64,000 bases of DNA from Thermoproteota archaeon (lineage in GTDB: Archaea; Korarchaeota; JAOZGF01; JAOZFZ01): positions 192,001 through 256,000 of the forward strand of contig JAOZFT010000004.1 of the NCBI GenBank assembly GCA_027492035.1. Reading direction: 5' to 3'. Positions 30,772 through 40,314 of the stretch are shown here, in pieces. The notes under the pieces are model-generated. The model did not search any database, was not told the DNA's origin, and saw nothing but the letters and a program-made list of their open reading frames with translations. The stretch's first letter is position 1; the number at the start of each line of letters is the position of its first letter. A program made the position numbers and the translations under genes.

Positions 30772-30899
30772 TGGGGTCGGAGGGATTTGAACCCTCGATC
30801 TACGGGTGCCTTCGAAACAACAGAAACTAATCATCCCTTTTTAGGTCATCGCACCAGTTCTCTGGAGCCCGGCGCCCTACCTGGCTAGGCCACGACCCC
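30772..30899 (-). tRNA. tRNA-Trp(CCA) with 54-nt intron at 37/38 (30808-30861)
   Basis: Acceptor GGGGTCG/CGACCCC, loop CT-CCA-G, T arm GAGGG TTCAAAT CCCTC. Confidence 0.9.
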
Positions 30900-32409: not shown

Positions 32410-32495
32410 GGGCCCGTAGCGTAGAAAGGAAAACGCACCGGCCTCCTAAAAACAGAGAAAGCCGGAGAACGCGGGTTCAAATCCCGCCGGGCCCG
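32410..32495 (+). tRNA. tRNA-Arg(CCT) with 11-nt intron at 37/38 (32449-32459)
   Basis: Acceptor GGGCCCG/CGGGCCC; anticodon arm CCGGC CT CCT A..A GCCGG. Confidence 0.9.
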
Positions 32496-32511: not shown

Positions 32512-32619
32512 GCGGGGGTTGCCGAGCCAGGTCAAAGGCGCCAGTGAAGGGTGAGACTTAAGATCTTTTAAAGAAATCTGGTGAGAAGCTCTTCGTGGGT
32601 TCGAATCCCACCCCCCGCA
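32512..32619 (+). tRNA. tRNA-Leu(TAA) with two introns (30/31: 32545-32555; 37/38: 32563-32575)
   Basis: Acceptor GCGGGGG/CCCCCGC; long variable arm; mature arm CCAGA CT TAA GA TCTGG after removing both inserts. Confidence 0.85.
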
Positions 32620-36150: not shown

Positions 36151-36235
36151 AGCCCCGTGGTGTAGTGGTCAAGCATGACGGACTCTGGACCAGGGGAGAA
36201 ATCCGTTGACCTCGGTTCGAATCCGAGCGGGGCTA
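36151..36235 (+). tRNA. tRNA-Gln(CTG) with 12-nt intron at 37/38 (36189-36200)
   Basis: Acceptor AGCCCCG/CGGGGCT (A1-U72); arm ACGGA CT CTG G..A TCCGT; BHB helix CTCT/GGAG. Confidence 0.92.
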
Positions 36236-39763: not shown

Positions 39764-40093
39764 CTAAGACGTCCTTTTTAAAGTTATTTCAATTAATGAA
39801 ACGTTCCTTTCTCCTCCCTCCCCACCTGTTAAAGTTTCTGTTCCTATTGTCACATTTGACACTTCTACGGCGTCCTGCAGAAACCTATTTTTTGTTATTT
39901 CTGCTACATCCACTGCTTTGCTTATTGATTTGCCTCTAGCCTTTATAATTACTGAATTTTTCCCTTGGTTAAATTGCAGAACAGTTGCTAATACATAATT
40001 CATAGTTGGTGTGCGCCCGTGTCTTTTAAAAACTATAGATCACGGATTACGCCCAATATAGATTTCTCCAGCTTCTTCACTAGTCACGTGCAT
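39764..40093 (-). CDS. albA: DNA/RNA-binding protein Alba, two exons (40093 or 40087 to 40047; 40010 to 39764)
   Basis: Spliced product MHVTSEEAGEIYIGRKPTMNYVLATVLQFNQG...IKARGKSISKAVDVAE...VSLIEITL; SD GGAGGTG at 40101-40095. Confidence 0.93.
40011..40046 (-). other. 36-nt BHB intron in alba mRNA
   Basis: TTGG-GCGT-AA^T-CCGTG...CACGG-GCGC-AC^A-CCAA canonical helix-bulge-helix-bulge-helix; contains in-frame TGA. Confidence 0.88.
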
Positions 40094-40314
40094 ACACCTC
40101 CATCTTTTTTCCTGTTCCTTTGAATGCTCTGACAATGTTTTGAAATACCTATTTATTCCTTTATAAAGGTTTCCTTTATGTTAAAAAGGTTTTATTTTCT
40201 TTTAAAAGATGAAAGATGTTATTGCCTTACTTTCAAAATGAGCCTTTCTTCAGCAAGAAAGTAGGATATCCCTTTATGGCTTCATTAATAAAAACGTTTT
40301 GGAAGGATCTTTTC

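Follow-up and report, generated by a model that had tools for sequence, protein, structure and literature searches.

Canonical archaeal tRNA introns lie at position 37/38 and carry the hBHBh' motif, and a bulge-helix-bulge (BHB) intron was reportedly described by Watanabe in 2002 in the pre-mRNA of a protein-coding gene, cbf5. According to a later survey, the cbf5 pre-mRNA intron is present in Desulfurococcales and Sulfolobales (Yokobori 2009, PMC2738675), and the same survey places BHB cleavage between the second and third residues of each bulge (PMC2738675). A further case comes from Haloferax volcanii, in which the HVO_1309 mRNA carries a BHB intron in its 5' UTR, as demonstrated both in vivo and in vitro (PMC7714728). 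Apart from this 5' UTR intron, that report, dated 2020, names cbf5 as the sole further case of a BHB intron reported from archaea (PMC7714728), and the later papers, in their reference lists and text, cite for mRNA introns the cbf5 work only. The original prediction for the locus studied here, which proposed a BHB intron inside the alba gene, was made in the belief that no alba case was known; our literature search, with most subscription journals outside its coverage, likewise returned no published BHB intron in alba.

[quoted passage not shown] The interpretation of this insert as a BHB intron is well supported by the sequence, and we consider it very likely that the alba pre-mRNA is spliced at the BHB by the tRNA-splicing endonuclease EndA, with the RtcB ligase joining the exons, to give a full-length Alba. 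Among the papers searched, cbf5 alone is reported to harbour a BHB intron within a coding sequence in archaea; if it is spliced, alba would be a second such host gene.

The alba intron would work like the cbf5 intron. Both are short inserts in a coding sequence, flanked by a BHB with cut sites, predicted in the case of alba, between the second and third bulge residues, and both have a scattered distribution, with some relatives having the insert and others being without it. Yet the two introns are not homologous, the alba insert does not lie at the cbf5 insertion site, and they show further differences: (i) the host gene is a different one, coding for a small chromatin and RNA-binding protein, and the insert is located near the N-terminus, after about 16 codons. 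(ii) The alba motif of the genome to which the window belongs (hereafter G000) is strict, whereas most of the cbf5 motifs are described as relaxed. (iii) Unlike the cbf5 intron, the alba intron shifts its position by 7 nt between sister genomes. (iv) Splicing of cbf5 has cDNA support in the published accounts, while splicing of alba is predicted here from sequence.

As with the HVO_1309 intron, the alba intron represents a substrate of the tRNA-splicing endonuclease in an mRNA, outside tRNA and rRNA, a role that in the case of alba is predicted; however, the HVO_1309 intron sits in an untranslated leader and leaves the reading frame uninterrupted, whereas the alba intron interrupts the frame. 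With the tRNA introns, alba shares the geometry of the motif and the cut rule: in the window, the same rule removes a 12-nt intron from the tRNA gene at 36151-36235 and turns it into a standard tRNA-Gln(CUG). In contrast to the tRNA introns, which concern the anticodon loop, the alba intron is flanked by coding exons, and its splicing would set both the reading frame and the protein.

Structure of the interrupted alba gene

Upstream of exon 1, a TATA-box-like block, AACCTTTATAAA (40171-40160, minus strand), is invariant in the alignment between G000 and its sister genome G001, and is likely to be the promoter of the whole alba gene. It is followed by a Shine-Dalgarno, GGAGGTG (40101-40095), and the Shine-Dalgarno block, GGAGGTGTA, is identical in G001. 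The reading frame that opens at ATG 40093 encodes MHVTSEEAGEIYIGRNP and then reaches the TGA, located inside the candidate intron at 40042-40040. Exon 1 (40093-40047) would start either at this ATG (40093-40091) or at GTG 40087, and would end two bases into the junction Lys codon. The GTG, which is placed 7 nt past the Shine-Dalgarno and is aligned with the ATG used in G001, is more likely to be the start than ATG 40093.

Exon 2 (40010-39764) begins with the third base of the junction Lys codon, ends with the TAG stop and includes a 79-aa ORF (40003-39764), whose frame is continuous with that of exon 1. The match of this ORF to the Pfam Alba profile (PF01918) covers positions 12-66 of 66; positions 1-11 are left uncovered and the ORF therefore lacks the first strand of Alba, the missing strand being encoded by exon 1. 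Joining of the exons at 40047/40010 generates an AAA codon for Lys (AA+A). The original prediction had placed the Shine-Dalgarno, the start, the TGA and the 79-aa ORF at these same positions and had described the ORF as an Alba without its first strand, and on all these points our analysis agrees with it. Split genes of this type are mis-annotated by gene finders, in the present case as the 79-aa Alba that lacks the first strand.

The G000 genome contains no second copy of the 36-nt intron, there is no homing-endonuclease gene among the seven ORFs that neighbour alba (about 3-5 kb), and the alba region produced no match to a known RNA family beyond one at E = 0.33.

Fold of the motif and fit of the junction

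Both the minimum free energy (MFE) and the centroid fold of 40066-39996 (minus strand) are an exact helix-bulge-helix-bulge-helix, and the helices and bulges that had been drawn by hand in the original prediction are those of the MFE fold. The motif itself (hBHBh', 40056-40006) is composed of an outer helix of 4 bp, UUGG (40056-40053) with CCAA (40009-40006), to which four further pairs are added past a 1-nt bulge; a central helix of 4 bp, GCGU (40052-40049) with GCGC (40016-40013); two 3-nt bulges, AAU (40048-40046) and ACA (40012-40010); and an inner helix of 5 bp, CCGUG (40045-40041) with CACGG (40021-40017). Helices h and h' are both present, and the motif passes the strict-form test. The fold of 40066-39996 has an energy of -15.7 kcal/mol (z = -1.94), with 6 of 200 shuffles being as stable or better.

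As stand-alone evidence, the BHB motif was rejected. We scanned both strands of the 1.87 Mb genome for the BHB geometry, requiring a minimum of 4 pairs in the outer, 4 in the central and 5 in the inner helix with no more than one G-U, and using as a control the mirror-image geometry, which is not an endonuclease substrate. The scan returned 346 real strict motifs versus 327 mirror-image ones (about 4.5e-7 per position and length), which is the frequency expected by chance, and the case must therefore rest on the placement of the motif relative to the coding sequence. At the alba locus, the strict structural filter was passed by 1 of the 11,159 local position/length combinations, and this one is the alba motif. 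Genome-wide, a screen for BHB removals that fuse open frames found no excess, with 188 cases versus 178-184 in controls whose 5' cut had been displaced by 1-2 nt, and the start-codon region of Hel308, which was examined as a possible split gene, showed no sign of an intron.

The fit of the junction to the Alba family was scored with an HMM made of 128 distinct uninterrupted proteins. These came from 187 uninterrupted loci, 179 of which were extractable; the other eight were left out because they had no upstream ATG or were shorter than 80 or longer than 130 aa. With this HMM we scored all in-frame deletions that eliminate the TGA and leave no stop codon in the frame (n = 1049), and the deletion defined by the endonuclease cut rule, 40046-40011, was the sole top scorer, with 139.3 bits. 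The second-best deletion reached 136.1 bits, the read-through product with X 126.1 bits, and the 79-aa ORF alone 120.1 bits. None of the other scored junctions makes the conserved Lys. The coincidence of a strict motif with the single best of 1049 junctions exceeds chance.

Interrupted and uninterrupted relatives

The class to which G000 belongs is represented in the collection by three genomes, G000, G001 and G002. In G001, which is from the same family as G000, exon 2 is 86% identical over 58 aligned residues and the alba gene is interrupted too: exon 1, MASEAEIGEIYIGKKPT, runs into a stop, and after a 62-nt insert the sequence continues as MNYVLATV. With its length of 62 nt, which is not divisible by three, the insert leaves the two G001 exons in different frames, so that read-through of the stop codon is impossible in this genome. 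Three equivalent 62-nt deletions are the best of 1180 stop-free ones, and they give the same N-terminus as in G000. Two of these three correspond to registers in which a central helix of 4 bp separates two bulges of 3 nt. In the better register, the central helix is CCAC/GUGG and the bulges are AAA and UAU; its inner side has 2 bp, followed past a mismatch by a 9-bp stem, and its outer helix is of 1 bp, which makes it a relaxed form. In contexts of 111 nt and of 140 nt, the MFE structure differs from this motif (constrained -28.7 vs -32.4 kcal/mol).

The predicted splice site of G001 falls within the Met codon, 7 nt downstream of that of G000, and the two inserts are unalignable save for a short 3' stretch. 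When the spliced forms are compared, the ten codons GEIYIG(R/K)KPT, the last two of which (Pro-Thr) sit in exon 2 in G000, differ between the two genomes at five places, four of them synonymous and one a conservative Arg/Lys replacement, a pattern that fits a translated sequence under selection. Upstream of alba, no synteny is common to G000 and G001. In G002, which is 71% complete, neither the protein search nor the Pfam Alba search found an alba.

An uninterrupted counterpart is provided by P0003, an Alba of 94 aa that was recovered in the protein search with 82% identity to G000 exon 2. The predicted spliced product of G000 aligns with P0003 without gaps, with 75 of the 94 residues identical. 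In fact, an unbroken run of 26 identities, GEIYIGRKPTMNYVLATVLQFNQGKN in P0003, spans the junction and takes in the Arg-Lys pair, in which the Lys codon would be made by splicing. The cut sites, the 36-nt length, the Lys codon and the restored N-terminus of the original prediction were reproduced by the top-scoring of the 1049 deletions, and they gain further support from the match to P0003 and from the different insert of G001, whose removal restores the same N-terminus. As the G001 insert is located 7 nt further downstream and P0003 is without an insert, the intron would have been gained, moved or lost recently within the class. Such a shift in intron position among close relatives bears on the origin of these introns.

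A survey of the alba genes of relatives had been suggested together with the original prediction, and it revealed, besides the different 62-nt insert of G001, a total of 187 other alba loci, all of them uninterrupted. In the first survey, the open frames of the 36 other matches measure 95-128 aa; translation confirmed 26 of the 28 loci that were fetched, and the remaining two (L006 and L007) have open frames of 123 and 125 aa. The metagenome scan yielded 80 uninterrupted alba loci out of 80, at 56-69% identity; 29 of them vary in residues (e.g. GNKNV), with all the frames continuous. In the scan of the genome collection, 79 of 80 loci are uninterrupted, G001 being the sole exception, and two of the loci have no Met within 40 codons, yet they are not interrupted.

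Alternative explanations for the insert

The most serious rival to splicing is that the insert is retained and that a truncated Alba of 79 residues is made from the internal ATG 40003, possibly as a leaderless product from a promoter inside the insert, exon 1 being then a relic or a small upstream ORF. We consider this improbable. Gene callers report the 79-aa ORF, which is intact, but its protein would be deprived of Pfam Alba positions 1-11, the first strand, and not one of the 187 other alba loci surveyed shows a truncation of this kind. An internal promoter of this sort would be consistent with a TATA-like TTTTTAAAA run in the intron loop, centred about 26 nt upstream of ATG 40003; its spacing, however, is not kept in G001. 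The 17-mer that contains this run (40023-40039) is found again, identical, at G000:C9:358845-358861, where it precedes the ATG of a small ORF by 16 nt, and this lends the proposal some weight. The recurrence could reflect either a promoter element common to both loci or a coincidence between AT-rich sequences. Against the idea of exon 1 as a relic, exon 1 is exactly the missing segment, in frame and with mostly synonymous change in G001, and it is preceded by the conserved Shine-Dalgarno, whereas inspection of the alba sequence revealed none upstream of the internal ATG. Moreover, retention of the insert would require the presence of a strict BHB on the best junction to be a matter of chance, at about 4.5e-7 per position.

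It is still less probable, and in our opinion very unlikely, that the insert is an assembly artefact or that alba is decaying into a pseudogene. Both G000 and G001 are metagenome-assembled, which leaves room for such an error, but the 79-aa product has been recorded from six contigs and the G001-type product, of 78 aa, from two, so that the interruption recurs across assemblies. Different inserts are present within the same few codons in two independent assemblies, exon 2 has kept its 86% identity between both genomes over the aligned residues, and the gene concerned is the sole alba copy of G000, as judged by protein and Pfam Alba searches.

The remotest of the three alternatives is that the TGA is read through or recoded (Sec, Trp or suppression), giving without splicing an Alba with a 12-residue insertion: although 36 is a multiple of three, the insert is in frame with both exons and the product still matches Pfam Alba, TGA ends 233 of the 846 ORFs of at least 250 codons and three of the seven listed alba neighbours, the 62-nt insert puts the G001 exons out of frame, the read-through form scores 13 bits below the spliced one, and no relative surveyed has an insertion at this point.

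Proposed mechanism and splicing machinery

Splicing of the pre-mRNA, the explanation that we favour, would proceed as follows. The alba gene would be transcribed from the promoter upstream of exon 1, and bases 40056-40006 of the pre-mRNA would fold into the canonical bulge-helix-bulge; EndA would then cut past the second nucleotide of each 3-nt bulge, and the RtcB ligase would join the exons, with the 36-nt intron probably being circularised. The joined mRNA would encode a full-length Alba of 95-97 residues with its AA+A Lys codon, while the unspliced mRNA would yield just a 17-residue peptide. The complete Alba is very probably made solely after mRNA splicing. The structure, the fit of the junction to the family, the presence of the enzymes in the genome and the same mechanism at cbf5 in that genome are shown here; from these we infer that cleavage and ligation occur on the alba RNA. 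A second, truncated isoform of Alba might also arise by way of the TATA-like loop, and it is a matter of speculation that Alba could bind its own pre-mRNA and thereby exert regulation or feedback.

The enzymes involved are encoded in G000. EndA corresponds to a single 378-aa ORF (L031:649-1785; contig C9 of G000, about 442.9-444.0 kb) containing PF01974 twice together with PF02778. Its N-terminal repeat resembles beta subunits, the closest counterparts of its catalytic C-terminal repeat are alpha subunits of crenarchaea, and the fused form is found in G001 and G002 as well. RtcB is encoded in G000 with a match of 578 bits.

The three genomes of the class also carry inserts in cbf5, of 23 nt in G000 (L198:1494-1516, equivalent to G000:C9:310022-310044, outside the window) and of 15 nt in both G001 and G002 (L200 and L201, around 1537-1570, TAA-containing), the junction in each case interrupting the catalytic Asp codon. 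The G000 insert is located at the known crenarchaeal site, between the first and second base of this codon, and those of G001 and G002 share its place. All three inserts fold as a BHB or as a bulge-helix-loop, and the CCCU/AGGG central helix is replaced by CCUU/GAGG or CCUU/AAGG, one compensatory pair included. As the cbf5 intron is present in all three genomes, this lineage already uses the one experimentally documented kind of archaeal mRNA splicing.

If the splicing of alba is true, the production of the only Alba of the cell would depend on the tRNA-splicing machinery, and the tRNA-splicing enzymes could be essential for producing ordinary proteins. With its strict motif, the 71-nt RNA would constitute a compact test substrate. 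It is a plausible but tentative idea, which we stop short of favouring, that the gain, movement or loss of BHB introns in protein genes is still going on in this class, which is small and branches deeply. Should these introns still be in flux, with unrelated inserts of 36 and 62 nt situated 7 nt apart, a third relative without one and a cbf5 intron in all three genomes of the class, the lineage would offer a natural setting in which to follow how introns of the tRNA type spread into messenger RNAs.

tRNA genes

Some observations on the tRNA genes were made in parallel. With its default settings, ARAGORN detected 18 tRNA genes, 17 of them on contig C9 and a single one among the other 41 contigs (1.2 Mb in total), a skewed distribution that could mean either that many genes are too interrupted to be recognised or that the bin is uneven. 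In its intron mode, the program produced noisy calls, mostly without matching BHB hits. Among the seven Rfam tRNA genes in the window, four are over-long (85-128 nt; 30772-30899, 32410-32495, 32512-32619 and 36151-36235) and are missed by ARAGORN in its default mode. These over-long genes probably carry one or more introns, and the last of them becomes the tRNA-Gln(CUG) mentioned above upon removal of its 12-nt BHB-type intron.
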